A stretch of 29,547 bases of DNA from an uncultured Myxococcales bacterium. Lineage in GTDB: Bacteria; Myxococcota_A; Polyangia; Palsa-1104; JAEUJZ01. Made by a program: the position numbers and the translations under genes. The notes under the pieces are model-generated. The model ran no database searches. It saw only the letters and a program-made list of their open reading frames with translations, and was not told the origin of the DNA. The number at the start of each line of letters is the position of its first letter. The first letter of the stretch is position 1. The DNA is taken from contig CALFYE010000446.1 of assembly GCA_937952145.1 (NCBI GenBank), positions 1-29,547 on the forward strand, written 5' to 3'. Below are positions 1,317 to 18,642 of this stretch, piece by piece.

Positions 1317-1826
1317 ATGGTCCGCGGTCGCAAGAACCCCCTACACACCCAGCTCCCGAAGCGGCTGAAAGACGCTCGGAAGGAGGCGGGCCACACGCGG
1401 ATGGGGTTGTCGCTGCTGGCGGGACTTGGCAACAACGCCGTCAGCCGTATCGAGGACGAGGGCCGGATGCCTACGATCGACACTGTGGAGCAGCTTGCCC
1501 GCGCACTCGGAGTGCCCGCGAGCTGGCTGGCCTTCGGCATCCATGCAGCCCCGCCTGCAAAGAAGTCGTATGGGTGTCAGCATGTCGGTGCTCGTCTGCG
1601 GCAGACCCGTGGTGACCGCGCCTATTCCGTGCGCGCGCTCGGCGAGCTGGCGGGCGTAAGCGGGGCAGCGGTAAGCGCCATCGAAAACAAGCCCCACATG
1701 CCCAGCCTGGCAACGATCGAGAAGCTGGCGAAAGCCCTCGATGTTTCGCCGGCATGGCTGGCCTTCGGTGCGGAAACTGCGCCCCAGGCTCAGACGATAT
1801 CGAATCCTCTGCTTCTAGACCGTTGA
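1317..1826 (+). CDS. XRE-family transcriptional regulator with two tandem helix-turn-helix domains
   Basis: Two repeated HTH_XRE-like units: GLSLLAGLGNNAVSRIEDEGRMPTIDTVEQLARALGVPASWLAFG and SVRALGELAGVSGAAVSAIENKPHMPSLATIEKLAKALDVSPAWLAFG. Confidence 0.7.
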   Translation: MVRGRKNPLHTQLPKRLKDARKEAGHTRMGLSLLAGLGNNAVSRIEDEGRMPTIDTVEQLARALGVPASWLAFGIHAAPPAKKSYGCQHVGARLRQTRGDRAYSVRALGELAGVSGAAVSAIENKPHMPSLATIEKLAKALDVSPAWLAFGAETAPQAQTISNPLLLDR

Positions 1827-2188
1827 CGCGGCTTGCCGTCGGTGGGCTTGCCTTTCAGCCTGTCGGCAATCGCGTCGAGCCAGCTCTGGGGCTTGGCTCT
1901 CTTCGGTGCAGGCGAAGACTCAGGAATCGCTGCGGATTCCGATGTCTTGGGCTCTGCCTCTCGTTCCGATGTTGCAGGCGCAGCTTCCATAAAGGAAAAG
2001 GAAAGCTGCTCGACATTCCCAAACGGCGCGACTGGCTCGAAGACGCGAGGTCGCTCCTCGCTTGCTTGCCGCGCCGACTCCTTTTTCCTCTTTCGCTGCG
2101 CCTTCAGCTTGCAGCGCGTGGAGCAGTACAAGGCATCGTCTCGCACGATCTCAGGCATCGGACCCGCGCACAGCCGACACACGCGCAT
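1790..2188 (-). CDS. Small zinc-ribbon protein: N-terminal CxxC-(x14)-YCSxxCK motif, then a Lys/Arg-rich stretch and an acidic/Pro-rich tail
   Basis: MRVCRLCAGPMPEIVRDDALYCSTRCKLKAQRKRKK. Same motif as the protein at 5797. Convergent with the XRE gene, overlapping it by 37 nt. Confidence 0.5.
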   Translation of the reverse strand: MRVCRLCAGPMPEIVRDDALYCSTRCKLKAQRKRKKESARQASEERPRVFEPVAPFGNVEQLSFSFMEAAPATSEREAEPKTSESAAIPESSPAPKRAKPQSWLDAIADRLKGKPTDGKPRQRSRSRGFDIV

Positions 2189-2422
2189 GTTTTGATCATA
2201 CCGAGTCTTTGAACCTGGGAGTATCGCCGCACCAGAAAGCCGTATCGCGCGCGTTCGCGATGTACTCGATCACAGATACCCGCGCAGCTCGCCGCGCAAG
2301 TGAGACTGAACGATCCCTCTTGCATTCATGTGCGCAGCCGTCGCATGTTCCCGCGCACGATTTGGCCCCTCGAACACCGATCTGAGGCCAGATTACGACA
2401 ACGCCAGCGACGGAGGCTCCCG

Positions 2423-3556
2423 ATGAGACAAAAGGGAACAGTAAACCAGCAACCAACATTTTCATTGCAAGTAAACACCTTACAGCAGGACCGCCCCCTG
2501 CGTGTCATCGGGTACGTCCGAGTCAGCACCGACATGCAAGCGCAGGAAGGTGTCAGCCTGGACGCACAGCGAGAACGCATCCGCTGCTACTGCAAGGCAA
2601 GCGGGTTCAAGCTCGTACATCTCGCGCAGGATGAGACTTCCGCGAAGTCGCTGGATCGCCCAGGACTGACCGCCGCACTCAAGCTGCTTGAGGCCGGAAG
2701 AGCCGACGCGCTCCTCGTCGTGAAACTGGACCGCCTCACGCGATCCGTGATCGACCTCGGCACGCTGCTTAACGGCTACTTCCTCAAAGAGCAGCACTAC
2801 TTGCTCTTCGTCACCGAATCCCTCGACACCCGCAACGCGATGGGCCGCTTCGTCCTCTATATATTGGCGCTCATCGCGCAGTGGGAACGCGAGGCCATCG
2901 GCGAGCGGACCCGCGAGGCGATGCGCCACCTGAAAGCACAAGGCGTCTTCCTGGGTCGCGCTCCATACGGCTATCGCTTCGGAACTACTCGTGATGTGAA
3001 TGGGAGGGCGCGGCTGGAGCCACATGCAGAGGAGCAGACCATCATCACGCGCGTCATCGAGCTGCATAAAAAAGGAGTGCAGCAAAAGGAGATCGTTGCA
3101 GTGCTGCGTGAAGACGGAATGCCGTCGCCGCGCGATGCTGGTTGGAATCGGACGATGATCTTGCGTATCCTCAAGCGCGCAGGCGCGATGCCTGAACGAA
3201 TCCGCGAGTATAAGAAGCGTGAGCGGCGGAAGGTACAGCGCGACAAGAAGCTGGCCGAGGCCAGAGCGAAGGAACTACGAGCCGAGGGGCTGTCGTTGCG
3301 GGCGATTGGGGAGCGGTTGTTGAAGGAGGGGCTGTATCCGCCGCGAGGGGATAGATGGCATGCGGCGACGGTGGCGGAGTTGTTGAGTGTAAAGACTGCG
3401 AAGGAAGCTGCTCAACGGGCTCATGTACTTAGAGCCCAAGGGCTCAGCCTTCGAGAAGTTGGTCGGCGGCTCCTGTATGAAGGATATCTGCCTTCGACTG
3501 GTCAACAATGGAGTCCGGTTGCGGTCGCTACTCTCGCGAATATTGCATCCGACTAA
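2423..3556 (+). CDS. Serine recombinase: resolvase/invertase catalytic domain plus recombinase domain, with two tandem HTH-like C-terminal repeats and no obvious zinc ribbon
   Basis: VIGYVRVSTDMQ (catalytic Ser), DRLTRS, and recombinase-domain GRAPYGYRF. GGAGG RBS 7 nt upstream of ATG 2423. The longer ORF from 2300 begins with an Arg-rich non-protein-like leader. C-terminal repeats GLSLRAIGERLLKEGLYPPRGDRWHAATVAELL and GLSLREVGRRLLYEGYLPSTGQQWSPVAVATLA. Confidence 0.8.
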   Translation: MRQKGTVNQQPTFSLQVNTLQQDRPLRVIGYVRVSTDMQAQEGVSLDAQRERIRCYCKASGFKLVHLAQDETSAKSLDRPGLTAALKLLEAGRADALLVVKLDRLTRSVIDLGTLLNGYFLKEQHYLLFVTESLDTRNAMGRFVLYILALIAQWEREAIGERTREAMRHLKAQGVFLGRAPYGYRFGTTRDVNGRARLEPHAEEQTIITRVIELHKKGVQQKEIVAVLREDGMPSPRDAGWNRTMILRILKRAGAMPERIREYKKRERRKVQRDKKLAEARAKELRAEGLSLRAIGERLLKEGLYPPRGDRWHAATVAELLSVKTAKEAAQRAHVLRAQGLSLREVGRRLLYEGYLPSTGQQWSPVAVATLANIASD

Positions 3557-3584
3557 ATACTGGCGTGGTACTGCTGGCACAATG

Positions 3585-3625
3585 AGAGTAAAGTCCAATA
3601 CGTATTGGCATTTACTCTATTTTCT
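3585..3625 (+). terminator. Rho-independent terminator-like nested hairpin: AGAGTAAAG-[CCAATACGTATTGG]-ATTTACTCT followed by ATTTTCT
   Basis: 8-bp stem enclosing a perfect 14-bp palindrome, then a T-run. Lies between the convergent recombinase (+) and HNH-like (-) genes, so it may act in both directions. Confidence 0.55.
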
Positions 3626-3635
3626 GTCTGATCTA

Positions 3636-4580
3636 TCAGACCATGTTTTTCACCATGGGCACAGATTCAACATCGTACCTTAGCGGCTCGACCGTAACAT
3701 GGCGCGGTTCTGCGTGATAGTTGATGGCTGCTACGAATTTCTGAAACCTAATGAGCGGCCCCCAGGAAAACCCGAAGCGACCCAGTGCATAATGCATCAA
3801 TGATCCAACAAACATCGGCACTGGGAAATCGAGCTTACTATGTTCGTCTAAAATGGTTAAAAATGTAACTTCTACCTTCTGTTGAGGCAGTAGTTTTTCG
3901 ATTTCGACTCTATAATTGGGACAAGTGCGATTCATCCCGATCTGGGTGACTTGTGCATTTCCCGACATCGTTGCGACGAATTCTGTACGATCAGGCCGCA
4001 TGCTGACGGCAGCACCTGGTGGAGTTCGAACCCGAGGTCCATCGACGATTGACTCGGGAAACTGCATCTCAAACTCGATGCCGATGATCTCCCGGTTACA
4101 ACGATTTTGGATAACCAGCAAATGTTGGCGAAGCAACTCCATGTGTTTAGCGGTAATTGTAAATCCAGGTATATTTTGAATGGAAAGACCAGGGCTGGTT
4201 TCAATCATTATCGATAAAGGATCTGGGAGTATACCCTGATGCCTAATGGCCTCCTCGTGCAGCCGCTTCCATTCTCGGATTTTGTGGCAAGAATAGGCAT
4301 CAGTATCCTTGTCGATTAGATCCGCGCAAACACTACATAACCAAATCCCGTTCTCAATGTCGGATCGCTGATCCGGAGTTTGATTTTCATCATAACGTGG
4401 ACCTTTAGGAGAAGCTGCACAAATATGAGCAGCCTTTCCTGTGCGAACGGACTTAGTTACGTCGCTACTGGGACCTATGGTTAGGCTCCCGCAGTCTGGG
4501 TTGGCGCACAGATATGCAGCGCGTTCCGCAAGTGCTCTTACGATGGGCTGATTGAAATCGTCCCGATTATCCTTCGACAT
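3636..4580 (-). CDS. HNH-like (H-N-N variant) nuclease-domain protein with a ~200-aa uncharacterised C-terminal domain. Low-GC cargo gene
   Basis: N-terminus CANPDCG...GKAAHICAASPKGPRYDE...ENGIWLCSVCADLIDKD fits the CxxC...HI...N...CxxC HNH scaffold, with the last His replaced by Asp. Local GC ~45-48% against ~68% background. Confidence 0.6.
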   Translation of the reverse strand: MSKDNRDDFNQPIVRALAERAAYLCANPDCGSLTIGPSSDVTKSVRTGKAAHICAASPKGPRYDENQTPDQRSDIENGIWLCSVCADLIDKDTDAYSCHKIREWKRLHEEAIRHQGILPDPLSIMIETSPGLSIQNIPGFTITAKHMELLRQHLLVIQNRCNREIIGIEFEMQFPESIVDGPRVRTPPGAAVSMRPDRTEFVATMSGNAQVTQIGMNRTCPNYRVEIEKLLPQQKVEVTFLTILDEHSKLDFPVPMFVGSLMHYALGRFGFSWGPLIRFQKFVAAINYHAEPRHVTVEPLRYDVESVPMVKNMV

Positions 4581-4672
4581 GATATTTGACCCGTTCAGAA
4601 GTTATCGACAATCTTCGTTAAGCCGTCAGCTCAACGAGTCGCGAGCCTAGCAGAAATCACAGCGGCCACGGG

Positions 4673-4695
4673 AAGTTGAAACTTTTTGAAGTTTC
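4673..4695. promoter_or_regulatory. Cluster of short inverted repeats (AAGTT-ga-AACTT-tttg-AAGTT) in the divergent intergenic region between the HNH-like and Rpn-like genes. Candidate operator
   Basis: GAAGTTGAAACTTTTTGAAGTTTC. The arms are reverse complements of each other. Confidence 0.25.
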
Positions 4696-4755
4696 AGACG
4701 CTGTCCAACCTTGTTGGCTTGACGCATTGCATGTCTCGGGTACCGTCTTCCCTCC

Positions 4756-5622
4756 ATGCCCAAGCTCCACGACCTCCTCTGCAAGCATCTGCTGCGCGAG
4801 GCGCTTGACCCGATCAGCACTGTCGAGCTGGAGAAGCCGGTCGCGCCGCTTGATGAGCAGCGCATCGACGTGTACTGCGAGCTGCGGTCCGAGCTGCCGC
4901 CGCCGGATGCGCTGCCCCATCTGGGCCTGGTCCGTCGCATGGCTGAGGTCGAGCGACGATTTCTCATCGAGCCGTTCTCATCGACCCCATCGGTCGATAG
5001 CGTCGATGACAATCTTCGTAAGAAGTTCAACCTGCACCATGGGCTGAAGAAGGCGGCCAAGGGCTCTGCGTCGCCCAAGCCTGCACTGTGGGTGCTATCG
5101 CCTGGACGCCCCGAGGAAGTTCTGCATGGCTACGCAGGCACGGAGGCTGCCGGCTGGCCGAGTGGTTTCTATCGGTTCGCGCCAGAGCTTGCGACGTGGG
5201 TTGTCGTTCTGGCCGAGCTACCGAAGACGGCGGAGACGTTGCTCCTGCGACTGCTGGGGCCTGCGACGATGCAGCTTGAGGCGCTGCGCGAGCTGGATGC
5301 GATGCCGCTGTCCGAGGCGCAGCGGCAGCCGTGGATTGATATCCTGGCGGATGTGCGATACTTGTTTGACGAAGCGCCGGACCTCAGCCCCGAGGAGAAA
5401 ACGATCATGACTGAACTACGACAACGGTGGGAGCGAGAGAAGGCCGAGCTGCGGGCCGAGAGTAAGGCCGAGGCAATCCTTACCGTGCTGGCCACGCGTG
5501 GCTTCAAGGTGAGCGATGGCGTCCGGCAGCACGTGCTTGGCTGCAAGGACCCGAGCACCCTGGAGCGCTGGCTCGCTCGCGCCGTGACTGCTACGTCCGA
5601 CACCGAAGTAATCGCCGCCTAG
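4756..5622 (+). CDS. Rpn/YhgA-like PD-(D/E)xK putative nuclease ('putative transposase' family) with a DUF4351-like C-terminal domain
   Basis: N-terminal HDLLCKHLLREAL...RIDVYCELR resembles the Rpn-family D..FK.LF / D..E signature. C-terminal ILTVLATRGFKVSDGVRQHVLGCKDPSTLERWLARAVTATSDTEV resembles the DUF4351 consensus (…LEqLe.W...…sLeEv). Assignment from memory of family consensus, not from a search. Confidence 0.45.
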   Translation: MPKLHDLLCKHLLREALDPISTVELEKPVAPLDEQRIDVYCELRSELPPPDALPHLGLVRRMAEVERRFLIEPFSSTPSVDSVDDNLRKKFNLHHGLKKAAKGSASPKPALWVLSPGRPEEVLHGYAGTEAAGWPSGFYRFAPELATWVVVLAELPKTAETLLLRLLGPATMQLEALRELDAMPLSEAQRQPWIDILADVRYLFDEAPDLSPEEKTIMTELRQRWEREKAELRAESKAEAILTVLATRGFKVSDGVRQHVLGCKDPSTLERWLARAVTATSDTEVIAA

Positions 5623-5796
5623 TCTCCCGCCACACTGAACTAGCAGTCGCTATGCAACCGCCCGAGTAGGCCTGCTGGCCATTGCGCGGTTGACGCTTTG
5701 CAAGATTGCGCCAGCGTTTCGCGCTGTTGACGGATTGTCGATCGCTCCCCCCGCACCGCCGGTACAATCAAGCCGTTGCATCAGGGGGAAACGGTC

Positions 5797-6255
5797 ATGG
5801 CGGTGCTCATGCCGCGCTGTTCTGCGTGTGTGCTGTGTGGAGATCCCATCGAAGGCAAGGGGCGGATCGACCGGATCTACTGCTCGGCCAGTTGTCGCAC
5901 GCTGGCGTGGCGGGCGCGGAGTGGGGATCGCTTTCGCGGGCGTCGCAAGAGCCTGCCGCCACAGCCTGGGAGCTACGTCGCGCGGCGTGCGCTGCCGTTG
6001 CTGGCGGTGCGCATGCGGGCCGAGCTGGATGCTGCCAAGCGGCGCATTGCAGAGCTGGAGAAGAAGCTAGGCGAGCGGCCCGGCAGCACGCGGGAGGGGT
6101 GGCAAAGGGGGCTGGCGTGGCGGTGGCAGCGGTCGCCGGTGCTGCCGCGATCGCGGCGGCGATTGAGCAGGAGCGGAGCCGCGTGCAGCAGACCGAGCGC
6201 GAGTGCGCCCGCGCGCAGGTGGCAGCCGAGCAGCAGAGACACCAGGCCGAGCTGA
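5797..6255 (+). CDS. Zinc-ribbon protein (CxxC-x14-YCSxxCR) followed by a short coiled coil. The last ~50 aa look like out-of-frame junk, so the ORF is probably frameshifted or fused to the downstream coiled-coil ORF near 6090-6100
   Basis: MAVLMPRCSACVLCGDPIEGKGRIDRIYCSASCRTLAWRAR, then RMRAELDAAKRRIAELEKKLGE. GGGGGA RBS 7 nt upstream of ATG 5797. Protein-like signal switches to frame 0 after ~6095. Confidence 0.45.
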   Translation: MAVLMPRCSACVLCGDPIEGKGRIDRIYCSASCRTLAWRARSGDRFRGRRKSLPPQPGSYVARRALPLLAVRMRAELDAAKRRIAELEKKLGERPGSTREGWQRGLAWRWQRSPVLPRSRRRLSRSGAACSRPSASAPARRWQPSSRDTRPS

Positions 6256-6890
6256 CGGCGGAGCGCGAGCAGGCCGCGCAGCGAGAAGCGGAGCTGCGAC
6301 AGCAGGTGGCCGCGCTCACGACTCGGGCGGAAGAGGCCAGCGCACGCGAACGAGCCGCAGCTTCGCGGGTCGCGATCCTGATTCACGATGCGGAGACTCT
6401 GCATCAGCGACTGGAGGACGAGGCAGACCGCATTTGGATTATGCACTTCGAGCTGGCCTCGCTGCGCGGGGCGGTGGTGGACGCGCGCGCACTGTGCAAT
6501 CGCAACTACGAAGCTTTTGTTGCGGAGTCGGCGCAGCGTCAGCACGTCGAGTTGCAGCTCGCTGAAGAGTCCAAGCAGCGCAAGCAGATCACGTCGCAGC
6601 TTAGAGCGCCTATCAAAACCTACTGCGGACCCCGGCCGCTGCGTCAGTCGTCGGTCACGGCCGGGAGGCCGCTCACTCCTCCCTCCTTGCTGCCGGGGTT
6701 CCTCGCTACGGTTTTGTTAGGCGCTCTTAGAAGGTGTTTACAAATTAAGCTGCGCATGGCCTCAACGCGATGTGCTGCACGGCTGGGGCCCCCGCGGACG
6801 CGGCCTCCTTTTTTCGCCGGGGCGTCGAAAAAAGGAGATCCGCTGCGGCCCCAGCCTTACGGGGCCCTCGACGGGAGAGATAATATGTAA
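6099..6890 (+). CDS. Coiled-coil protein with an N-terminal Ala/Val-rich hydrophobic segment. May be the frameshifted continuation of the 5797 gene. Its reading frame runs through the downstream repeat, and the stop TAA lies inside the repeat's terminal inverted repeat
   Basis: GVAVAAVAGAAAIAAAIEQERSRVQQTERECARAQVAAEQQRHQAELTAEREQAAQREAELRQQVAALTTRAEEASARERAAA... Last ~55 aa are a translation of the repeat element, so the true start and C-terminus are uncertain. Confidence 0.35.
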   Translation: MAKGAGVAVAAVAGAAAIAAAIEQERSRVQQTERECARAQVAAEQQRHQAELTAEREQAAQREAELRQQVAALTTRAEEASARERAAASRVAILIHDAETLHQRLEDEADRIWIMHFELASLRGAVVDARALCNRNYEAFVAESAQRQHVELQLAEESKQRKQITSQLRAPIKTYCGPRPLRQSSVTAGRPLTPPSLLPGFLATVLLGALRRCLQIKLRMASTRCAARLGPPRTRPPFFAGASKKGDPLRPQPYGALDGRDNM

Positions 6891-6899
6891 ACACCTTCT
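6733..6899. repeat. Complete ~167-bp structured repeat with perfect 10-bp terminal inverted repeats (GGTGTTTACA / TGTAAACACC). It has a variable 5' segment and a conserved GC-rich long imperfect hairpin core containing T6/A6 runs. MITE-like or structured intergenic repeat
   Basis: 5' part matches 29447-29547 and 3' part matches 1-52. Internal stems: GGCTGGGGCC/GGCCCCAGCC, CTCCTTTTTTCG/CGAAAAAAGGAG, GGCCCC/GGGGCC. Sits between convergent genes and may act as a bidirectional terminator. Confidence 0.8.
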
Positions 6900-8259
6900 A
6901 AGCCTCCTGCTTGCGTCGCTTGCGCCACAGCGTCGAGCTGTCGATGCCGAGGATGGTGGCGGCTTCGTCCTGGGTCTTGCAGCGCAGGAGGACGCGACGG
7001 ATGTGTTCGCGCTCTAGCTCTTCTAGCGTGCAGTCACCGCCCAGGCTGGGGCCGGCTTGACTGTGGCGCCCGATGCGCTCGGGCAGGCCCTCGGGCTCGA
7101 TGATCTGGGCCGGCCACAGGATGGTGGCGCGCTCGATGGCGTTGCGCAGCTCGCGAATATTGCCGGGCCAGGGGTATCCCAGCAGGGCCGACTCGGCGGC
7201 GCGTGATAGCTCCATCGGCGGGCGGCCGGTGCTGCGGCGGAAGAACGACAGGAAGTGGCGACACAGCGGCAGGATGTCTTCCGGGCGCTCGCGCAGCGGC
7301 GGAATCTGCACTTCGACGACGTTGAGGCGAAACAGCAGATCTTCGCGAAGCTGGCCGCGCCGCACGGCGTCTTCCAGGTCGCGATTGGTGGCGGTGACGA
7401 TGCGGACATCGGCGCGACGAGTGTGGTTTTCGCCGATGCGCTCGAATTCTTTCTCTTGCAGAAAGCGCAGCAGCTTGGCTTGCAGGGGCGGGGCGATTTC
7501 GCTGACCTCGTCGAGAAACAGGGTTCCGCCCTGCGCTGCTTCGACGCGTCCGGGCTGATCGCGCACCGCGCCAGTGAACGCGCCGCGGGCATGACCAAAC
7601 AGCTCGCTGGCCAAGAGATCACCCGACAGCGTGGGGCAGTTGACCATGACGAACGGCTGACCAGCGCGCGGGCTGCGACTGTGCAAAAGCCGCGCGAGGA
7701 CTCCCTTGCCGACGCCGCTCTCGCCGCGCAGCAGCACCGAGGCCTCCGAGCCCGCGGCCCGCCCGAGCATCTCGAAGATCGCGTGCATCTTCGGCGAAGC
7801 CGACTGCAGCTCGGTCTCGGGAACGGCGTCCTTGAGCTGATCTTCCAGATCGGCCATGCGGCGCTGCAGGGCCCGCCGCTCGACGATCTGATCGACGACG
7901 TGACGGATCTGCGCCGGCGAAAACGGCTTGGGCAGAAAGTCAGTGGCGCCGCGCTTTATGGCCTGCACTACGGCCTCGAACGTCCCGTAAGCGGTGATGA
8001 GGACGATGGCCAGCTCGGGGCTTTCTTTCAAGAGCTGCGGCAAAAGATCGAGACCACTGGTTTCTCCCAGACGCAGGTCGACAAAGGCCAGGTCATGAGG
8101 CTGGCGCTGCAACGCAGCGACGGCAGCGGCGCCACTTTGGACGGCGGTGACGCTGCAGCCCATGCCCTCCAGGCAGATCGACAGCGTGGTTAGGATGTTC
8201 TTTTCATCGTCGACAATCAGCGCGCGCAGCGGGCGCCGAGGCGGGCTGGCTTCGGTCAT
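6898..8259 (-). CDS. Sigma-54-dependent Fis-family response regulator (NtrC-type: REC + AAA+ sigma-54 activator + C-terminal HTH)
   Basis: REC domain (LIVDDE...DLAFVDLRL...KPF), Walker A GESGVGKG, GAFTGA motif (GHARGAFTGA), ATPase core, C-terminal Fis HTH (QDEAATILGIDSSTLWRKRRK). Stop codon overlaps the repeat end by 2 nt. Confidence 0.9.
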   Translation of the reverse strand: MTEASPPRRPLRALIVDDEKNILTTLSICLEGMGCSVTAVQSGAAAVAALQRQPHDLAFVDLRLGETSGLDLLPQLLKESPELAIVLITAYGTFEAVVQAIKRGATDFLPKPFSPAQIRHVVDQIVERRALQRRMADLEDQLKDAVPETELQSASPKMHAIFEMLGRAAGSEASVLLRGESGVGKGVLARLLHSRSPRAGQPFVMVNCPTLSGDLLASELFGHARGAFTGAVRDQPGRVEAAQGGTLFLDEVSEIAPPLQAKLLRFLQEKEFERIGENHTRRADVRIVTATNRDLEDAVRRGQLREDLLFRLNVVEVQIPPLRERPEDILPLCRHFLSFFRRSTGRPPMELSRAAESALLGYPWPGNIRELRNAIERATILWPAQIIEPEGLPERIGRHSQAGPSLGGDCTLEELEREHIRRVLLRCKTQDEAATILGIDSSTLWRKRRKQEA

Positions 8260-8357
8260 GGCGGGGCTCCAATAGCGGGCCGTGCGAGGCCGTGCGGGGC
8301 GATGCGGGCCGGCTCGACCTGTCGTCTAGCACAGGCAGTCAGCGGTCGGGGGCAGCA

Positions 8358-10001
<1,644 letters not shown>

Positions 10002-10118
10002 AGAGTCTCCGTGACAGCGAATCCCGGCCTGGCAGCGCGCAGCGATGCGAGCAAGCGACCCACGAACCCAGCGTGGGCGTGGCTGGCTGTGCGCCCAGCC
10101 GGGGCATTGCTGGCTAGC

Positions 10119-10220
10119 TTGGCAAGATCCGTACCGACGCTGGTTCCCTCGCAGTCGCTGGGCCCGCGGTTGCAGAGTGCAAGATGACGAGCCGGCGCAT
10201 TCGTGCAGCTTGCAAGGATC
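10119..10220. promoter_or_regulatory. Three GCAAGAT-like direct repeats (TTGGCAAGAT, GTGCAAGAT, CTTGCAAGGAT), partly palindromic (TTGCAgagTGCAA; CTTGCAAG), 40-140 bp upstream of the candidate sigma-54 promoter. Candidate enhancer (UAS) sites for the adjacent EBP
   Basis: Repeats at ~10121, ~10179 and ~10211. Position relative to the -24/-12 element. Confidence 0.25.
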
Positions 10221-10258
10221 GGCGGGGGCGCTCTCTCGGTGGGCTCGGCGGCAGGTGA

Positions 10259-10274
10259 TGGCACAGCACGTGCT
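10259..10274 (+). promoter_or_regulatory. Candidate sigma-54 (-24/-12) promoter TGGCACagcacgTGCT upstream of kdpF-kdpA
   Basis: Matches the consensus TGGCAC-N5-TTGC at GG (-24) and GC (-12) with correct 10-nt spacing, ~125 nt upstream of kdpF ATG. Consistent with the divergent NtrC-type EBP. Confidence 0.45.
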
Positions 10275-10400
10275 GCTTCCCTGGGCACCCGGAAGGAGTG
10301 CCCATGCACGATGCTGTCCTTGTCCTTATCACCCTTGGTTTCTTTGGCTCGGCCTGGGCCTACGCCCGCGGCTGCGAGCAGCTGTAGGCCGGGGTCTCGC

Positions 10401-10490
10401 ATGCACGCGGACTACTGGATTGGGGCAGTGCTGGCTGCCCTGCTCAGTCTCTATCTCCTGTACGCGCTCCTGCGTCCCGAGCGGTTCTAA
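10401..10490 (+). CDS. kdpF: KdpF, small hydrophobic subunit of the Kdp K+-transporting ATPase (29 aa)
   Basis: MHADYWIGAVLAALLSLYLLYALLRPERF resembles E. coli KdpF (…LLGYLVYALINAEAF). Sits immediately upstream of kdpA. Confidence 0.7.
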   Translation: MHADYWIGAVLAALLSLYLLYALLRPERF

Positions 10491-10499
10491 AGAACATCC

Positions 10500-12221
10500 A
10501 TGTCAGCCACCGGTCTTCTACAAATCGCGCTGTTCTGCCTGCTGATCCTGGGCTTGACCCGGCCGCTGGGGGGCTACCTGTTCACCGTGTTCGAAGCGAG
10601 CCAGCGACCCCGGCTGCCGCTGCTTCCATCCATCGAACGCTTGCTCTTTCGCCTCTGTGGCGTCGAGCCGCAGCGCGAACAGACCGCAGCGGAGTACACC
10701 GCTGCGCTGCTGCTGTTCAGCGCGATCGGGGTGCTGCTGACCTACCTGCTGCTGCGCACACAGCACCTGCTGCCGCTCAATCCGCAGCACTTCGGATCGG
10801 TGCCGCCGGCGCTTTCGTGGAACACCGCGGTGAGCTTCGCCAGCAACACCAACTGGCAGGCCTATGCCGGTGAATCGACGCTGAGCTATTTGACCCAGAT
10901 GGCCGGCCTGGCCTGGCACAACTTCACCTCCGCCGCGGCGGGTCTGGGTGTTGCGCTGGCCCTTTCGCGCGGCCTGACCCGCCGGCCTGGCCCGCTGGGG
11001 GCGCGCACGCTGGGAAATTTTTGGGCCGATGTACTGCGCGCGATCGTGTACGTACTGCTGCCGCTCTCGTGCGTGGCGTGCCTGCTGCTGGTGTCGCAGG
11101 GCGTGATCCAGAGCTTCGCCGACTATGTCTGGGTACCGACGCTAGAAGGCGGCCGGCAGCTCGTGCCGATGGGGCCGGTGGCGACGCAGGAAGCGATCAA
11201 GATGCTGGGCACAAACGGCGGCGGCTTCTTCAACGCCAACAGCGCCCACCCCTTTGAAAATCCGACGGCGATCAGCAACCTGCTGCAGCTTGTGCTGATC
11301 TTCGCGCTGCCCGCCGCGCTGACCTACACCTATGGCCGCATGGCCGGCGATACCCGACAGGGCTGGGTCCTGTTCGGTGCGATGGCCGTACTTTTTCTGC
11401 TGGGCGCCGTCGCCACGTACGCCGCCGAAGCCGCCGGCAATCCGGCGCTGCGTGGTCTTGCGATCGATGCCACGGCCGGGAATCTGGAAGGCAAAGAGCT
11501 GCGCTTCGGCGTCGCCGGATCCGCACTGTTTGCCACGGTGACCACGGCGGCTTCTTGCGGCGCGGTCAACGCCATGCACGACAGCTTCACGCCGCTTGGC
11601 GGGCTGGTCACGCTGCTCAATATTCAGCTCGGCGAGGTGATCTTCGGGGGGGTCGGCGCAGGCCTGTACGGCGTGCTGATCTTCGCGCTGCAGGCGGTGT
11701 TCATCGCTGGCCTGATGATCGGCCGAACCCCGGAGTATCTCGGCAAAAAGATCGAGGCGAAAGAGATGACGATGTCGATGCTCTACGTGCTGATTCCCCC
11801 GCTCTTGATCCTTGGCTTTTCTGGCTGGGCGGCGGTTTCTCCCGCGGGTCTATCGTCGCTGAGTGGGGGCGGTCCGCATGGCCTGTCCGAGATTCTTTAT
11901 GCCTACTCAAGCGGCACCGGTAACAACGGCTCGGCCTTCGCCGGACTAAACGCCAACACACCTTTTTGGAACGTGACCCTGGCCTTGGTGATGCTCGCGG
12001 GACGGTTCCTGATGATCGTGCCGGTCCTGGCCATCGGCGGATCGATGTTGAACAAGAAGGTCCTCCCGCCGGGGCCGGGTACCTTCCCCACCGGTTCGCT
12101 ACTGTTCGGTGGGCTGCTTTCCGGCGTCATCATTTTCTTGGGAGCGCTGACCTTCTTTCCCGCGCTAGCACTTGGGCCTCTCGTCGAGCACTTCGCGGCG
12201 GCACGCGGGAGGGGGTTCTGA
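10500..12221 (+). CDS. kdpA: Potassium-transporting ATPase subunit A (KdpA)
   Basis: 573-aa polytopic membrane protein with KdpA-typical N-terminus and selectivity-filter-like NGGGF motifs. Operon context with kdpB and kdpC. Confidence 0.9.
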
Positions 12222-14278
12222 TGTCGGCGAATCCCGTGGTCGAGCGCTCGCTGCTGGATGTCACGATCCTGGGGCCGGCTCTCGGGCAGAGCCTGACCAA
12301 GCTGGCCCCGCGTCACCTCGCAAAGAATCCCGTGATGTGCGTGGTCGCGGTCGGCGCTGTGCTGTGCGTGGGGCTGTGGCTGCGCGATCTGCTGCGGCCC
12401 GATCTGGCGTCGGCGCCGCGCTGGTTTTCCGGCGCGGTCTGCCTGTGGCTGTGGTTCACCGTGCTGTTTGCCAACTTCGCCGAAGCGGTGGCTGAAGGGC
12501 GTGGTCGGGCCCAGGCTGCGACACTGCGTCGGCTACGTCGGGAGACGCAGGCTCGCCGCTTGCGCGATGGCCGGGAAGAGCGCGTCGCCGCGTCGGCTCT
12601 GCTCAAGGGCGATGTCGTCATCGCCGAAGCCGGAGATCTGATTCCTGGGGACGGCGAGATCATCGAAGGGATCGCTTCGGTCGATGAGTCGGCGATCACC
12701 GGCGAGTCCGCTCCCGTCATTCGCGAGAGCGGAGGCGATCGCTCGGCAGTCACCGGAGGCACCAAGGTCCTCTCGGATCGCATCATCATCCGCATCAGCT
12801 CTGACCCCGGCCAGTCGTTCCTCGATCGCATGATCGCGCTCGTCGAAGGGGCGGCGCGCAAGAAGACGCCGAACGAAGTCGCCTTGCACATCCTATTGGT
12901 CGGCCTGACCCTGATCTTCCTCTTCGCCTGTGTCTCGCTGGTGCCGCTCGCCCAGTACTCGGGCCTGCGGCTGTCACCCACCGTTGTGGTGGCGCTTCTG
13001 GTTTGTCTGATTCCCACGACCATCGGCGGACTTTTGTCGGCGATTGGCATCGCGGGAATGGATCGCATGCTGCGCAAGAACGTCCTTTCCATGAGCGGTC
13101 GCGCGGTCGAGGCCGCGGGAGACATCGACGTGCTGCTGCTCGACAAGACCGGCACCATCACGCACGGCAACCGCATGGCGACTGAGCTCTTCCCCATGCC
13201 GGGGGTGCGCAGCGAGACGCTGGCCGAGGTCGCGCAGCTTGCCAGCTTGGCCGATGAGACGCCCGAAGGTCGGTCGATTGTCGCACTGACCCGCGAGCGC
13301 TACGGCCTAACGCAGCAGGTGAGCGGGGAACACGAGCTTGTGCCGTTTTCGGCGCATACACGCATGAGCGGCTGCAACCTCCCGCACGGCGCTACTCCAC
13401 GCATCCTTCGCAAGGGAGCCGTCGATGCCATTCGGCGGCATGTCGAGGCAGCAGGCGGCACTGTTCCGGCTGAGCTGGAGATGACCGCCGGTGGCATCGC
13501 CGATCGTGGAGGCACCCCGCTGGCGGTCAGCGAAGGCAATCAAGTGCTGGGCCTCGTTCACCTCAAGGACGTCGTCAAGAGCGGTATCAAAGAGCGCTTC
13601 GCGCGCTTTTCGGCCATGGGCATCCGCACCGTGATGATCACCGGCGATAACCTGCGCACCGCCGCCGCCATTGCTGCCGAAGCGGGCGTCGATGAGTACC
13701 TGGCTGAGGCGACCCCCGAGACCAAGCTGCAGCGGATCCGTAGCGAGCAGGCGCGCGGCAAGCTGGTGGCGATGACCGGCGATGGCACCAATGACGCGCC
13801 AGCGTTAGCGCAGGCCGATGTCGGGGTGGCGATGAACAGCGGCACGCAGGCCGCGAAGGAAGCCGGCAACATGGTCGATCTCGACAGCAACCCCACCAAG
13901 CTCTTGGAGGTCGTCGAGGTCGGCAAGCAGCTATTGATGACCCGCGGCTGCCTGACGACCTTTTCGATCGGCAACGATGTGTCGAAGTATTTCGCCATCT
14001 TGCCGGCCCTGTTCATTCCCGTCTTCCCCGAGGTCGCGCCGCTGAACATCATGCGCCTGGCCTCGCCACAGAGCGCCATCCTGTCAGCCGTGATCTTCAA
14101 CGCGATCATCATCATCTTGCTGATTCCGCTCGCGCTGCGCGGGGTGCGCTATCGGCCCCTGGGCGCGGCCGCGGTCCTGCGGCGGTCCCTTGTGGTCTAC
14201 GGTCTGGGCGGGCTGCTTGCGCCATTTATCGGCATCAAGCTCATCGACCTGCTCCTTGTGGCGCTGCACCTTACCTAG
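12221..14278 (+). CDS. kdpB: Potassium-transporting P-type ATPase subunit B (KdpB)
   Basis: ATGA start/stop overlap with kdpA. P-type ATPase motifs DKTGTIT and [20 protein letters not shown]. Confidence 0.9.
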
Positions 14279-14287
14279 GACGTCTTC

Positions 14288-14887
14288 ATGCCGACTGCGA
14301 TCGAAGGCTTGGGAACTGCTCTGCGCGTGACGTTAGTGACGCTGGTGCTCACTGGATTTCTTTATCCCCTCGCGATGACGCCGCTGGCGCAGCTCTTGTT
14401 TCCGGCACAGGCGCGCGGCAGCCTGGTCGCGGATGAGCGGGGACAGGACGTGGGCTCGGCCCTGCTGGGTCAGCGCTTTGTCCAACCGGCCTACTTCCAG
14501 GGGCGGCCATCGGCAGCCGGAGTCGATGGCTATGACGCGGGCGCATCGGGCGGCTCGAACCTAGGTCCGACAAGCCTGAGGCTGCGCCAGCGTGCTCAGG
14601 CCGAGCTTGCGCGTCTTCTGCGTCAAAATCCTGCTGCACCCAGCGCTGTTCCTGTCGAGCTGATCACGACTTCGGCAAGCGGGCTGGATCCGCACATCTC
14701 GCCCGCCGCGGCTCTTTGGCAGGTGCCGCGGGTGGCCCAGGCGCGCGGCGTTTCTGAGGCGCGAATCGCCAGGCTGGTGCACGACCGGGTGCAGGGGCGG
14801 CAGCTTGCGATCTTGGGCGAGCCGCGGCTCAACGTGCTCTTGCTCAACCTGGCCCTTGATCGCCAGTTTGGCCGTCCCGGAGGATGA
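14288..14887 (+). CDS. kdpC: Potassium-transporting ATPase subunit C (KdpC)
   Basis: 199 aa with an N-terminal TM helix and KdpC-like conserved regions. Directly follows kdpB. Confidence 0.85.
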   Translation: MPTAIEGLGTALRVTLVTLVLTGFLYPLAMTPLAQLLFPAQARGSLVADERGQDVGSALLGQRFVQPAYFQGRPSAAGVDGYDAGASGGSNLGPTSLRLRQRAQAELARLLRQNPAAPSAVPVELITTSASGLDPHISPAAALWQVPRVAQARGVSEARIARLVHDRVQGRQLAILGEPRLNVLLLNLALDRQFGRPGG

Positions 14888-16125
14888 AGCGAGGCATGGC
14901 AGAGGCTGATCCGATCTCACGGTCTTCGTCGCGTCTGCCCGGAGTTAGGTCCGCCCCTGACCATCCGCGCGAGCGCCGGGCGGCCGACTTCCTGGAGCTG
15001 GTCGAGCGCGCCAAGCGCGGGCGGTTGAAGGTGTTTCTCGGCTACGCCGCCGGCGTCGGCAAGACCTATCGCATGCTGGAGGAGGCGCAGGCTCTGCGTA
15101 GGCGGGGCGTCGATGTCGTCATCGGCCTTGTCGAGACGCACGGCCGGCCGGAGACCGCAGCCCTGGTGCCGGGCCTGCTGGCGATTGCCGGTCGCCGCTT
15201 TGACTACCGCGGCGTGACCCTGCACGAGCTGGATGTCGAGGCCATCCTGGCGCGGCGCCCTGAGGTCGTGGTTGTCGACGAGGTCGCGCACACCAATGTC
15301 CCGGGCAGCCTGCATCGCAAGCGCTACCAAGATGTGAACGCGCTCCTTGATGCCGGCATCAGTGTCCTTTGCGCCTTCAACATTCAGCACCTTGAGAGCC
15401 TCAACGAGCTGGTGGCGCGAGCCACCTTGGTGCAGGTCCGCGAGACAGTCCCCGACGCCTTCTTGCGACAAGCCGATCAGATCGTGACCATCGATCTGGA
15501 TATCGAAGATCTGTTGGAGCGGCTGCGCGCCGGCAAGATCTACACGCCGGACAAGATCGACTGGGCGCTGGGACATTTTTTTCAGTCGAGCAACCTGGCG
15601 ACCCTGCGCGAGCTTGCGCTGCGCGAAGTCGCCGAGAGCGTCGGTCGCCCCAAGGCTGCAGAGCGAGAGGAGCCGGCGCGTCGCGAGGGCTGGGGCGGCA
15701 AGCTCCTGGTCTGTCTGTCGAGCAATCCGCCACATGGCCGCACCTTGCTGCGCCGCGGCTCGCGCTTGGCGGGGCGACTGAACACCTCCTGGTATGTCGC
15801 CCATGTCGAGACCTCGGCCGAGGCACCGCTGCGCATCGACGCCGAAAGTCAGCGTCGGCTACTGGCCAATATCGATGTGGCGCGAGAGTTGGGTGCAGAC
15901 GTGGTACGCCTGCGCGGCGAGGATCCCGTGACCACCCTGCTTGCCTTTGCCGCGACCCACGGCGTTAGCGATATCGTGATCGGCCGGGGACCCAGCCCAT
16001 CCTTTCGGCGACTGTTCGCGCCCTCCTTTACCGCCCGCATGCTGGAGCACGCGAGTGCTTTTGATCTGCACATCGTCTCGTTTCCCAGCCCCGTGAAGGG
16101 AGCGGCGGAGGGAGGTCGGGAATGA
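14884..16125 (+). CDS. kdpD: KdpD N-terminal sensor domain + Usp domain protein. It has no transmembrane or histidine-kinase part, i.e. a 'split' KdpD
   Basis: RGRLKVFLGYAAGVGKTYRMLEEAQALRRRGVDVVIGLVETHGR...NIQHLESLNELV...VRETVPD aligns closely with the E. coli KdpD N-terminus. C-terminal Usp-like fold (LLVCLSSNPPHGRTLL...). ATGA overlap with kdpC. Alternative start at 14899. Confidence 0.85.
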   Translation: MKRGMAEADPISRSSSRLPGVRSAPDHPRERRAADFLELVERAKRGRLKVFLGYAAGVGKTYRMLEEAQALRRRGVDVVIGLVETHGRPETAALVPGLLAIAGRRFDYRGVTLHELDVEAILARRPEVVVVDEVAHTNVPGSLHRKRYQDVNALLDAGISVLCAFNIQHLESLNELVARATLVQVRETVPDAFLRQADQIVTIDLDIEDLLERLRAGKIYTPDKIDWALGHFFQSSNLATLRELALREVAESVGRPKAAEREEPARREGWGGKLLVCLSSNPPHGRTLLRRGSRLAGRLNTSWYVAHVETSAEAPLRIDAESQRRLLANIDVARELGADVVRLRGEDPVTTLLAFAATHGVSDIVIGRGPSPSFRRLFAPSFTARMLEHASAFDLHIVSFPSPVKGAAEGGRE

Positions 16126-17981
16126 CCCTGCGGCGCAAGCTCCTGCTCTCGCAGGTGCCGCTCTTGCTGGCCCTGCTGCTGCTGTCGATTCTGCATCGCT
16201 GGAGCGTGTCGTCCGTTGGTGGGGCAGCGCAGAATATCCTGCGCGAGAACTATCGCAGTGTGCTGTCGGCGCAGCGCATGGAGGATGCGCTTGAGCGCTT
16301 AGATTCAGCGGCGCTGTTCGTGCTGGGCGGTCAGCGCGATCGCGGTCTGCAGCAGCGGGATGAAAATCAGCAGCGCTTTGAGCGCGAGCTGCGCATCGCA
16401 GAGGGCAACATCACCGAGCCCGGCGAGCGCGAGGCGGTGTCGGCTCTGCGGCGACGCTGGCAAGACTATCAGCCGATCCTTTTGGACCTCTTTGCTGCGG
16501 ACGCGATTGAGGAAGCGAGGGCGCTGTACTTCGGGCGAGCCGAGCCCGCCTTTGTCGGCGTCAAGGCGGCGGCCGACGCCATCCTGACGCTGAATCAAGA
16601 TGCCATGGTGCACAAGAGCGACCACGCCCGCCGCGTTGCCGAGCAGGTCTCGCAGATCGCGACGCTGTCTTCGCTGGCGGCGATCTCGCTCGGCGTCCTC
16701 TTGTCGCTGCTGCTCACCGCGCGCTTGCTGCGGCCACTCTTCGATCTTCGCGATGCCGCGCGTAGGCTGGGGGCCGGCGAGCTAGGGGCGCGGGCGGCAG
16801 TGCGTGGACACGATGAGATCGCGCACTTGGCGAGCGACTTCAACGCCATGGCGCAGCAGATCCAGCGCTATCGCCAAAGCTCGCTCGGTGAGCTCTTGGC
16901 GGCGCAGCAAGCGGCGCAGTCAGCGATCGACAGCCTGGCCGATCCGGTCGTGGTCTTTGATGGCAGCGGCCGCGTCGCCAACCTCAATCGCGAGGCTGAG
17001 GCCCTGTGGCCGGTCTCGTCGGAGCGGGACGCCCGCGAGCTACCCCCTGGCATCGAGCCCGCCGTGGCCGAGGTGCTGTCGCGCCTGCGCGCCCACATCC
17101 TCCTGGGCAAGGGCACCTACGCGCCGAAGGACTTCAGCGAAGCCGTGCAGGTCGGGCGCGGCGAGTCCGAGCGCTGGCTGTTGCCGCGGGCCAGCCCCGT
17201 CTATGGCGCGGCCGGGGCAGTCGAGGGCGCGACGATCGTCCTGCAGGACATCACGCGACTGCGTCGCTTCGATGAGCTGAAGAATGATCTCGTGGCCACC
17301 GTGGCGCATGAGTTTCGGACGCCGCTGACTTCCCTGCGCATGGCCGTGCACCTGTGCTTAGAAGGCATCGCCGGACCGGTGACCGAAAAGCAGATCGAGC
17401 TCTTGCACGCCGCGCGTGAAGACTGCGAGCGACTGCAGGGCATGATCGAAGATCTGCTGGATCTGGCGCGCATCGCTTCGGGTCGCGTCGAGATGCGCAA
17501 GGTGCTGGTGTCGGTGCAAAACCTCATCGATGGCGTGGTCGCCGAGGGGCAGGCGAAGGCGCAAGAAAAAGGGGTGCTGCTGTGCGCCGAACACTCGCCG
17601 CTGTCGCCGCAGAAGATCTTCGCTGATCCCGAGCGACTGGGTCTGGTGTTCAGCAACCTGGTGAGCAACGCCATCCGCCACACGCCGGTCGGCGGCCGCG
17701 TCACCGTGCGCGCCCTGCCGGCCGGCGAGTCGGCGCGCTTCGAAGTCAGCGACACCGGCGAAGGCATCCCGCTTCCCTATCAGCGCGAGATCTTCCTGCG
17801 CTTCTTTCGCGTCCCCGGCAGTCCGGCAGGCGGCGCCGGCCTGGGCCTGTCGATCGCCAAAGAAATCGTCGAGGCGCACGGCGGGCGAATCAGCGTGCAC
17901 AGCCAGCCGGGGCAGGGCAGCACGTTCTGCGTGCAGGTGCCGCTACTCGACGGACACAAGGCCGAGCCGGGTCGCGCCTAG
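16122..17981 (+). CDS. Membrane sensor histidine kinase (2 TM, HAMP, PAS-like, HisKA, HATPase_c). Probable kinase partner of the split KdpD and the sigma-54 response regulator
   Basis: TM helices at the N-terminus and ~aa 185-205; HAMP (LRPLFDLRDAARRLGAGELG...); H-box VATVAHEFRTPLTSL; G-boxes DTGEGIP, GGAGLGLSIAKEIVEAHGG. ATGA overlap with the upstream gene. Confidence 0.85.
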   Translation: MTLRRKLLLSQVPLLLALLLLSILHRWSVSSVGGAAQNILRENYRSVLSAQRMEDALERLDSAALFVLGGQRDRGLQQRDENQQRFERELRIAEGNITEPGEREAVSALRRRWQDYQPILLDLFAADAIEEARALYFGRAEPAFVGVKAAADAILTLNQDAMVHKSDHARRVAEQVSQIATLSSLAAISLGVLLSLLLTARLLRPLFDLRDAARRLGAGELGARAAVRGHDEIAHLASDFNAMAQQIQRYRQSSLGELLAAQQAAQSAIDSLADPVVVFDGSGRVANLNREAEALWPVSSERDARELPPGIEPAVAEVLSRLRAHILLGKGTYAPKDFSEAVQVGRGESERWLLPRASPVYGAAGAVEGATIVLQDITRLRRFDELKNDLVATVAHEFRTPLTSLRMAVHLCLEGIAGPVTEKQIELLHAAREDCERLQGMIEDLLDLARIASGRVEMRKVLVSVQNLIDGVVAEGQAKAQEKGVLLCAEHSPLSPQKIFADPERLGLVFSNLVSNAIRHTPVGGRVTVRALPAGESARFEVSDTGEGIPLPYQREIFLRFFRVPGSPAGGAGLGLSIAKEIVEAHGGRISVHSQPGQGSTFCVQVPLLDGHKAEPGRA

Positions 17982-18012
17982 CCCCGTCGTTCCTCCGCAA
18001 TCGGTGGGCGCG

Positions 18013-18642
18013 TTAGCCCTTGGCCTTGGCCATCAGCGCATCATCGATCTCGCGGGCCCGCACCGCGGCCGGGCGACCGAAGAGGCGTCCGGCGTAGGCC
18101 TGGAAGGTCGGGCGTTTTTCGATGTTGCCGAACTGCATGCCCCAGCCGATCTGCGAGCCCAGGTAGACGTCGGCGGCCGAGAAGCGCTCGCCGAGCAGGT
18201 ACGGCCCGCGCGACAGCGCATACTCCAGAGCGGCCATGACGTCGGCTTCCGAGCCGAAGCCCACCATCGGGCGCTTCTCGGGCGGAACGGTGATGCCCAG
18301 CGACTTGATGCTCGACATGCTCTCGACCGGGCCGGCGCCGAAGAACAGCCAGCGATAGTAGGTCGCGCGCTCCTTGTCACCGGGCGGCGGAGCCAGACCG
18401 GCTTGCGGGAAGGCATCCGCGAGATAGGCACAGATGGCGGCAGCTTCGGTCACCACGGCGTCGCCGTGTCGCAGCGCCGGCACCTTGCCCATCGGGTTTA
18501 CTGCCAGATACTCCGGCCCCTTCATCGTCGTCCCGTAGTCCAAGAGCACCGTCTCATACGGCTGCCCAACCTCTTGCAGCATCCAGCGGACGATGCGGCC
18601 TCGCGACATGGGATGGGTGTAGAACGTCAGCTTGTCGGACAT
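18013..18642 (-). CDS. Glutathione S-transferase family protein
   Basis: MSDKLTFYTHPMSRGRIVRWMLQEVGQPYE... with thioredoxin-like N-domain and GST C-domain. Start set to MSDKL; the longer ORF to 18810 has an Arg/Ser-rich spurious leader. Confidence 0.8.
   Translation of the reverse strand: MSDKLTFYTHPMSRGRIVRWMLQEVGQPYETVLLDYGTTMKGPEYLAVNPMGKVPALRHGDAVVTEAAAICAYLADAFPQAGLAPPPGDKERATYYRWLFFGAGPVESMSSIKSLGITVPPEKRPMVGFGSEADVMAALEYALSRGPYLLGERFSAADVYLGSQIGWGMQFGNIEKRPTFQAYAGRLFGRPAAVRAREIDDALMAKAKG

Follow-up and report, generated by a model that had tools for sequence, protein, structure and literature searches.

A kdp locus of an uncultured myxococcal bacterium with a divergent porin gene and predicted sigma-54-dependent, two-component control

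In the textbook scheme, Kdp potassium uptake is controlled by KdpD and KdpE with a sigma-70 promoter. A kdp locus that encodes neither a full-length KdpD nor, nearby, a KdpE raises the question of how its pump genes are regulated. Such a locus occupies positions 6898 to 17981 of contig CALFYE010000446.1 from an uncultured Myxococcales bacterium (GenBank assembly GCA_937952145.1), whose whole stretch of 29,547 nucleotides (nt) is referred to here as the window. A preliminary description, made from the letters alone, proposed that a sigma-54 enhancer-binding protein (EBP) and a separate histidine kinase regulate the pump. The proposal is supported by conserved gene linkage, a conserved -24/-12 element and a regulon-specific enhancer palindrome. 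Because of these three lines of evidence, we consider it highly probable that the locus is a two-component, sigma-54-dependent K+-starvation regulon that is not controlled by KdpDE. The mechanism suggested for the window is inferred throughout from sequence and comparative genomics.

Gene layout and linkage of the regulator to kdp

On the plus strand, kdpF (10401-10490; 29 amino acids [aa]; PF09604, E = 1e-11), kdpA (10500-12221; PF03814, 771 bits), kdpB for the P-type ATPase (12221-14278; DKTGT at 308, TGES at 160-163) and kdpC (14288-14887; PF02669) are followed by a gene for a soluble 413-aa protein (14884-16125), in which the domain scans found only the KdpD N-terminal domain (PF02702) and a Usp domain. 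We refer to this protein as KdpD-N. The next gene encodes a 619-aa histidine kinase (16122-17981) with the domain order 4HB_MCP_1-HAMP-PAS-HisKA-HATPase_c. The minus strand holds the gene for a 453-aa EBP (6898-8259) and, upstream of it in the same direction after a gap of 98 nt, the gene for a 547-aa BBP2/OmpL-like porin (8358-10001). Among the open reading frames (ORFs) of the 29.5-kb window, domain scans detected no OmpR-type response regulator (Trans_reg_C).

The preliminary description had put forward domain annotation of 14884-16125 and 16122-17981 as a check. Together with hydropathy analysis, that annotation bore out its account of kdpFABC followed by a KdpD part without transmembrane segments or kinase, and of a separate HAMP-PAS histidine kinase with two transmembrane segments. 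The divergent EBP with receiver, AAA+ and helix-turn-helix domains, co-directional with a porin, was likewise recovered by Pfam, the -24/-12 element upstream of kdpF was present, and the absence of an OmpR-type KdpE held for the ORFs of the window. Two details had to be revised. The ATGA overlaps described at all junctions occur at kdpC/kdpD-N and at kdpD-N/kinase, whereas kdpA and kdpB share 1 nt (TGATG) and kdpB and kdpC are separated by 9 nt. Also, kdpF does not head the operon; a conserved 27-aa ORF (10304-10387) comes before it.

The EBP (Response_reg, Sigma54_activat, AAA_lid_14 and HTH_8 in Pfam terms) begins with a receiver domain (PF00072, 88 bits) that has an acidic pocket at D17/D18 and a predicted phospho-acceptor at D61. 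Its AAA+ domain (PF00158, 212 bits) carries GAFTGA at 226-231 and the Walker A sequence GESGVGKG, and its C-terminal domain is a Fis-type helix-turn-helix (PF02954, 34 bits). With a receiver, a GAFTGA-bearing AAA+ domain and a Fis-type helix-turn-helix, the protein is an EBP of the NtrC class.

The neighborhoods of EBP relatives were viewed in three ways: in a genome collection, through contig look-ups and in a metagenome scan that returned 80 loci. The genome collection, which was searched with KdpD-N, contributed 4 loci. Close relatives of the EBP, with 65-82% identity over the full length, are very numerous, and the relatives linked to kdp span 45-82% identity. In the metagenome scan, relatives down to about 45% identity still adjoined kdpABC-KdpD-N-kinase, and the link was lost below about 44%. 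Of the 24 scan loci that were 9 kb or longer and had an EBP identity of at least 45%, 14 were linked to kdp.

The linkage was kept in about 20 independent loci and in four gene orders: divergent, convergent, upstream and collinear. The closest locus (L001, from a Polyangia metagenome-assembled genome [MAG]) has synteny identical to that of the window, and L011 has the same gene arrangement. The EBP gene is convergent to kdp in L005 and in a 'Deltaproteobacteria' MAG (L002), where it lies downstream of the kinase gene. It is upstream of kdp and co-directional in L009 and L010, and a few genes away from kdp in L007 and L008. The collinear order kdpABC-KdpD-N-kinase-regulator was seen in six loci of the metagenome scan (L039, L040, L042, L047, L053 and L061), and in nearly all linked loci KdpD-N directly precedes the kinase. 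The survival of the linkage in four gene orders argues strongly for a functional tie between the EBP and kdp; the unlinked cases show that this tie is not an obligatory adjacency. Locus L007 also carries tandem sigma-54 response regulators near kdp (155-1570 and 1992-3365; 37% identity to each other's counterpart), of which only the second is a relative of the kdp type.

It could be argued that the kinase and EBP serve a regulon unrelated to kdp, for example one like AlgB/KinB, that they adjoin kdp by chance and that another regulator drives the pump genes. Many EBP relatives indeed carry the JGI automatic name 'AlgB', and some have no linkage to kdp. However, the window EBP stays below every NCBIfam equivalog cutoff (AtoC is best, with 379 bits versus 714; NtrC gives 371 versus 559), the linkage persists in relatives of only about 45% identity and in four gene orders, and the -24/-12 element and the palindromes described below are conserved specifically upstream of kdp. 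In addition, the Desulfovibrio vulgaris counterpart shows experimental binding. We regard a chance neighborhood as very improbable.

Promoter elements, palindromes and the genes they flank

The kdp promoter element TGGCACAGCACGTGCT at 10259-10274 (plus strand) was the sole match to TGGCAC-N5-KTGCW in the 29.5-kb window, where 0.08 matches were expected; downstream of it, the operon's first ORF follows after 29 nt. Of 25 loci scanned for a GG-N10-GC element with 9 or more of the 11 consensus positions, 17 had one upstream of kdpA, at 200-345 nt from its start codon, against a background of 0.015 per stretch of the same size (2.0 million strand-bases). It was not found at that distance in the remaining 8. 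Three of these, Escherichia coli (L094), L003 and L004, are canonical loci with full-length KdpD. In L095 and L096 the porin gene heads the operon and bears the promoter, and in L097 the element is nearer to kdpA. The element is missing upstream of kdpA, without explanation, in L017 and L059.

Between the porin gene and the kdp promoter lie two palindromes, which we regard as a putative enhancer (upstream activating sequence). Palindrome 1 (TTGCAGAGTGCAA, 10170-10182) is a perfect TTGCA-N3-TGCAA, and palindrome 2 (GTGCAGCTTGCAA, 10203-10215) has 1 mismatch. The two are 33 bp apart; measured from the GG of the kdp promoter, their centers lie at 84 and 51 nt. In the 1.0 Mb of fetched loci the perfect palindrome occurred in only 12 copies, palindrome 1 among them, and 11 of the 12 had a kdpA, porin, EBP or kinase gene less than 700 nt downstream. 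Pairs spaced by 32-33 bp recur in L001, L005, L011, L014 and L031. Because the motif was derived partly from the window, the other loci are the independent test of it and the window is not. Comparative genomics of kdp loci, which the preliminary description had also suggested, found the EBP linkage, the -24/-12 element and the palindrome conserved. In L020 and L037, a perfect TTGCA-N3-TGCAA stands immediately upstream of the regulator gene itself. The sequence TGGGCCCGCGGTTGCA at 10159-10174, which scored 9/11 as a -24/-12 element, was rejected; it overlaps palindrome 1 and is regarded as a by-product of the TTGCA half-site.

Another possibility is that a canonical KdpE or another sigma-70-dependent regulator, encoded elsewhere, is the main kdp activator, with sigma-54 control fine-tuning expression or answering a second stress. 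The window shows no more than 29.5 kb of the genome, and in D. vulgaris two further regulators, DVU0596 and DVU3305, also bind the kdp upstream region (PMC3333781). On the other hand, no match to the sigma-70 consensus promoter was found in 6700-18300, there is no full-length KdpD as a partner for KdpE, and species with a kinase-less KdpD mostly lack KdpE (Silberberg 2024, PMC11018627). We consider an external KdpE or sigma-70-dependent regulator as the main activator unlikely. As no Rfam family, riboswitches included, reached the threshold anywhere in the window, we also rejected a riboswitch upstream of kdp, whether for c-di-AMP or of another kind.

On the porin side, a candidate -24/-12 element (CGGTACGGATCTTGCC, 10121-10136, minus strand; 8/11 consensus positions) has its GG 41 nt from the center of palindrome 1, so that the two palindromes are flanked by divergent candidate sigma-54 promoters. 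Stronger elements occupy the same place, 41 nt from the center of the proximal palindrome, in L001 (TGGCACAACGCTTGCA), L014 (TGGCATATTGCTTGCG) and L031 (TGGCGTATCCCTTGCA), and L011 has a strong element (TGGCATGTCGGTTGCG) 52 nt from its palindrome. Including these four, strong porin-side promoters were found in seven loci (also L095, L096 and L097).

The porin (PF07642, 122 bits versus a cutoff of 26) has a signal peptide, followed by a helix at 57-76, a linker rich in Thr and Pro, and a barrel. In an AlphaFold (AF2) model built from 32 homologues (mean pLDDT 67), the barrel comprises about 16 strands; the best Foldseek matches of the model were general trimeric porins, including OprP, PhoE and DcaP. 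In each of the 32 homologues the barrel carries a net negative charge (-3 to -12), which is compatible with a preference for cations without demonstrating it. Residues 82-99 (window ~9700-9760, minus strand) are 18 consecutive Thr, followed by a linker rich in Pro, Thr and Ala; this stretch sits between the helix and the barrel and is predicted to be disordered in the model. The N-terminal region of the porin varies in length among homologues.

Of 8 loci examined for porin relatives, 7 had the relative next to kdp. Three further relatives with 59-73% identity, which had been picked solely by the extent of their flanking sequence, all adjoin kdp (L095, L096 and L097). In L095 and L096 the kdp operon opens with the porin gene, which a -24/-12 element precedes, and in L097 the porin gene is divergent. 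The porin is probably part of the kdp regulon. Locus L095 has, in addition, an ORF of 100 aa (11463-11765) between the porin gene and the small ORF/kdpF, Cys-rich and apparently secreted, which was seen only there. No report of a kdp-linked porin was found in open-access papers and preprints, which is weak evidence of absence. Among Bacteroidota, kdp loci may likewise combine a porin gene with a short KdpD and a sigma-54 regulator.

The first ORF of the rightward unit (MHDAVLVLITLGFFGSAWAYARGCEQL, 10304-10387, plus strand) is preceded by a good ribosome-binding site, GGAAGGAG, and would encode a hydrophobic peptide of 27 aa that has no Pfam or NCBIfam family and is unannotated. With a hidden Markov model made from six copies, the ORF was detected in 18 independent loci, always directly upstream of kdpF/kdpA, and never elsewhere in about 1 Mb of fetched loci. 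It was not found in the canonical KdpDE loci (E. coli, L003 and L004), in L096 or in L097. The consensus reads M-x-D-[hydrophobic x11]-FF-x2-AWAY-x-R-x-C-x2-L.

The KdpD N-terminal protein and the histidine kinase

The preliminary description spoke of a split KdpD. A stand-alone KdpD-N and a separate kinase are indeed present; the kinase, however, lacks the KdpD-type transmembrane and GAF sensor. It runs from a first transmembrane segment through a periplasmic domain like a four-helix bundle to a second transmembrane segment, HAMP, PAS, DHp (H396) and CA, with hydrophobic segments at residues 5-32 and 176-206 by hydropathy. Only the DHp/CA core aligned with E. coli KdpD (384-607 versus 661-880, 29% identity), and in a PDB search the kinase matched other kinases better than KdpD. 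We therefore ruled out that it is the C-terminal half of KdpD, as its sensor part is of the 2TM-4HB-HAMP-PAS type and not the 4TM-GAF type (TM, transmembrane; 4HB, four-helix bundle).

KdpD-N is 41% identical to the N-terminal plus Usp module of E. coli KdpD, and hydropathy analysis found no hydrophobic segment in it. Its Walker A-like sequence (G53-x5-G59 K60 T61) corresponds to G30-x5-G36 K37 T38 of E. coli KdpD, its Walker B residues D132/E133 correspond to D109/E110, and R213, the arginine that pairs with adenine, corresponds to R190; Y62 replaces E. coli W39. The Usp domain has the motif RxxxR-x8-W of the E. coli type, and the c-di-AMP motif of the Staphylococcus aureus type (SxS-x20-FTAxY) is not present in it. 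Against NF038185 (KdpD_non_kinase) the protein scored 354 bits, with a cutoff of 550, so that it has the same architecture and stands outside the curated set.

The KdpD N-terminal domain has been reported to be an atypical serine kinase which inactivates the pump by phosphorylating Ser162 of KdpB, and both the isolated domain and the short Deinococcus KdpD/Usp still phosphorylate KdpB (Silberberg 2024, PMC11018627). The serine in the TGES motif of the window KdpB corresponds to E. coli Ser162, and KdpD-N keeps every catalytic residue of this kinase. Since these residues are kept, KdpD-N may chiefly be an off-switch of the pump, acting after translation as a predicted KdpB serine kinase.

Taken further, these observations would make KdpD-N purely a post-translational brake, with the HAMP-PAS kinase sensing K+ or osmolarity alone. 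Such a division of labor would fit the conserved serine-kinase residues defined in E. coli, the TGES of the window KdpB, the phosphorylation of KdpB by the isolated domain and the short Deinococcus protein, and also locus L096, where porin-kdpFABC has no KdpD-N, kinase or EBP nearby. On the other hand, KdpD-N stands directly before the kinase in nearly all linked loci, and the ATGA overlap in the window suggests a coupled stoichiometry; moreover, the equivalent domain of E. coli modulates the balance of kinase and phosphatase activities. The constant place before the kinase and the stop/start overlap thus leave room for a signaling role of KdpD-N as well, and the two roles can coexist. We hold the purely post-translational role to be possible, though somewhat doubtful.

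Known systems and the proposed control circuit

The closest published system is that of D. vulgaris Hildenborough, whose response regulators were mapped by DNA-affinity purification (Rajeev 2011, PMC3333781). As published, its genes DVU3339.1-DVU3334 comprise the same set of kdpFABC, a K+ sensor with Usp (DVU3336), a 'sensory box' kinase (DVU3335) and a GAFTGA sigma-54 regulator (DVU3334). In vitro, DVU3334 binds upstream of kdpF at the site CGTTACATTTTGTAACG, at -149 of kdpF (PMC3333781), and a sigma-54 regulome lists DVU3334 (GAFTGA) with 'Potassium uptake' (Kazakov 2015, PMC4641369). The DVU3334 site is GTTACA-TTT-TGTAAC and that of Syntrophobacter fumaroxidans is TTTCA-TTT-TGAAA (PMC3333781); the sites of D. 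vulgaris and the window share the 5-N3-5 architecture with one base different per half-site, and locus L040 carries TTTCA-AGT-TGAAA, which has the S. fumaroxidans half-sites.

DVU3334 is likened to the window EBP by its published description; the collinear loci of the D. vulgaris type carry EBPs that are 46-50% identical to the window EBP. The predicted features of the window, namely the gene set, the linked GAFTGA regulator, the -24/-12 element and the upstream palindrome, place it in the DVU3334-type layout. The D. vulgaris genes form one collinear operon for which no porin is reported, whereas in the window the porin and EBP genes form a unit apart, divergent from kdp and with a candidate -24/-12 element of its own. 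The preliminary description was thus right that the pairing departs from the KdpDE arrangement of the textbooks, but the pairing had already been published for D. vulgaris in 2011 (PMC3333781).

With the KdpD/KdpE-kdpFABC system of E. coli, the window has the pump genes and the two-component principle in common. E. coli KdpD fuses the KdpD-N/Usp module to 4TM-GAF-DHp-CA, whereas the window protein ends after Usp and has no transmembrane segment. The window EBP resembles E. coli KdpE in the receiver domain only (29% over 108 aa), and its predicted partner is sigma-54 instead of sigma-70. Like the window protein, the short KdpD/Usp proteins of Deinococcus, Anabaena and Alicyclobacillus are stand-alone, encoded downstream of the pump genes and have the Walker A and B residues kept (PMC11018627). 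In the short-KdpD systems of that survey the two-component system is separate, whereas in the window the kinase gene is adjacent and the regulator is a sigma-54 EBP. The survey treats short-KdpD species without KdpE as solely post-translationally controlled and does not discuss a sigma-54 EBP regulator for them (Silberberg 2024, PMC11018627).

The porin resembles PhoE of E. coli and OprP of Pseudomonas by analogy only, in that a channel of the outer membrane would share its regulation with high-affinity uptake at the inner membrane. The proteins share the porin fold, with about 10% identity, and PhoB control in those systems contrasts with the sigma-54/EBP control proposed here. For Myxococcus xanthus, kdp was reported to be osmotically induced, and KdpDE control was simply assumed; otherwise, nothing relevant on the regulation of myxobacterial kdp was found in open-access papers and preprints.

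From these comparisons we propose the following circuit for the window. The membrane kinase would sense low K+, osmotic stress or both, through its periplasmic four-helix-bundle domain, PAS or both, and would phosphorylate the receiver domain of the EBP. The activated EBP would then assemble on the palindromes at 10170-10182 and 10203-10215, between the two divergent -24/-12 promoters, and, using ATP, would open sigma-54 RNA polymerase complexes in both directions. The predicted rightward transcript covers the small ORF, kdpF, kdpA, kdpB, kdpC, kdpD-N and the kinase gene, and the leftward transcript covers the porin and EBP genes. Since the EBP would drive both units, the sensor and the activator would be positively autoregulated, and an outer-membrane channel would be made alongside the inner-membrane pump. 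When K+ returns, KdpD-N/Usp would most likely shut the pump, and it may also modulate the adjacent, translationally coupled kinase.

Several observations weigh against a dedicated sigma-54 switch for kdp. About 40% of the EBP relatives with long flanks do not adjoin kdp (L012, L013, L018-L020, L024, L025, L031 and L034-L037), and in L012 and L013 there is no kdp within 10 kb of the relative. The EBP family may act on further genes besides or instead of kdp, or the unlinked genomes may carry kdp at another place. The porin-side element of the window, at 8/11, is weak and weaker than in the relatives. Finally, the absence of kdpE was judged on the 29.5-kb window only. In L013 (8898-11374), the regulator relative, which is 67% identical, overlaps the end of a gene of the Na+/Ca2+-exchanger family, with no adjoining kdp.

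Other parts of the window hold genes of different kinds. At 21340-24282 (minus strand) a 980-aa bacterial protein like the major vault protein (MVP) is encoded; it matched the shoulder domain of the eukaryotic MVP (PF11978, 76 bits) and also vault repeats 3 and 4. An XRE-type helix-turn-helix protein (1317-1826) and a large serine recombinase (2300-3556) stand beside a stretch of low GC content (3000-5000; 53% versus about 65%) with two ORFs that have no family, and the region 1317-5100 may be an integrated mobile element. Two plus-strand ORFs, at 5706-6890 (394 aa, convergent with the EBP gene) and 26068-27228 (386 aa), had no Pfam or NCBIfam match.

The core arrangement of the locus is a further example of the system described in 2011 and is a matter of consolidation rather than discovery. 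It is nevertheless a variant with some new content, owing to the porin-regulator unit in divergent orientation, the enhancer shared by both units and the small ORF; of these features, a porin co-regulated with the pump and the conserved 27-aa ORF could be new. The comparable loci bear source labels that include Polyangia, other 'Deltaproteobacteria', Acidoferrales and Margulisiibacteriota, which suggests that a sigma-54 activator with a HAMP-PAS kinase may be a widespread alternative kdp switch in soil and sediment bacteria.

We see about an even chance that Polyangia-like Myxococcota have a Kdp regulon which includes a K+-starvation-induced porin and a 27-aa membrane peptide under a bidirectional sigma-54 enhancer, and that the kinase/EBP pair also serves many 'KdpE-less' bacteria. 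If so, many bacteria with a short KdpD and no KdpE would keep transcriptional control of the pump, through the kinase/EBP pair. The kdp-linked porin would be a potassium counterpart of PhoE and OprP, and the 27-aa peptide might act as a leader peptide or as a fifth subunit of Kdp.

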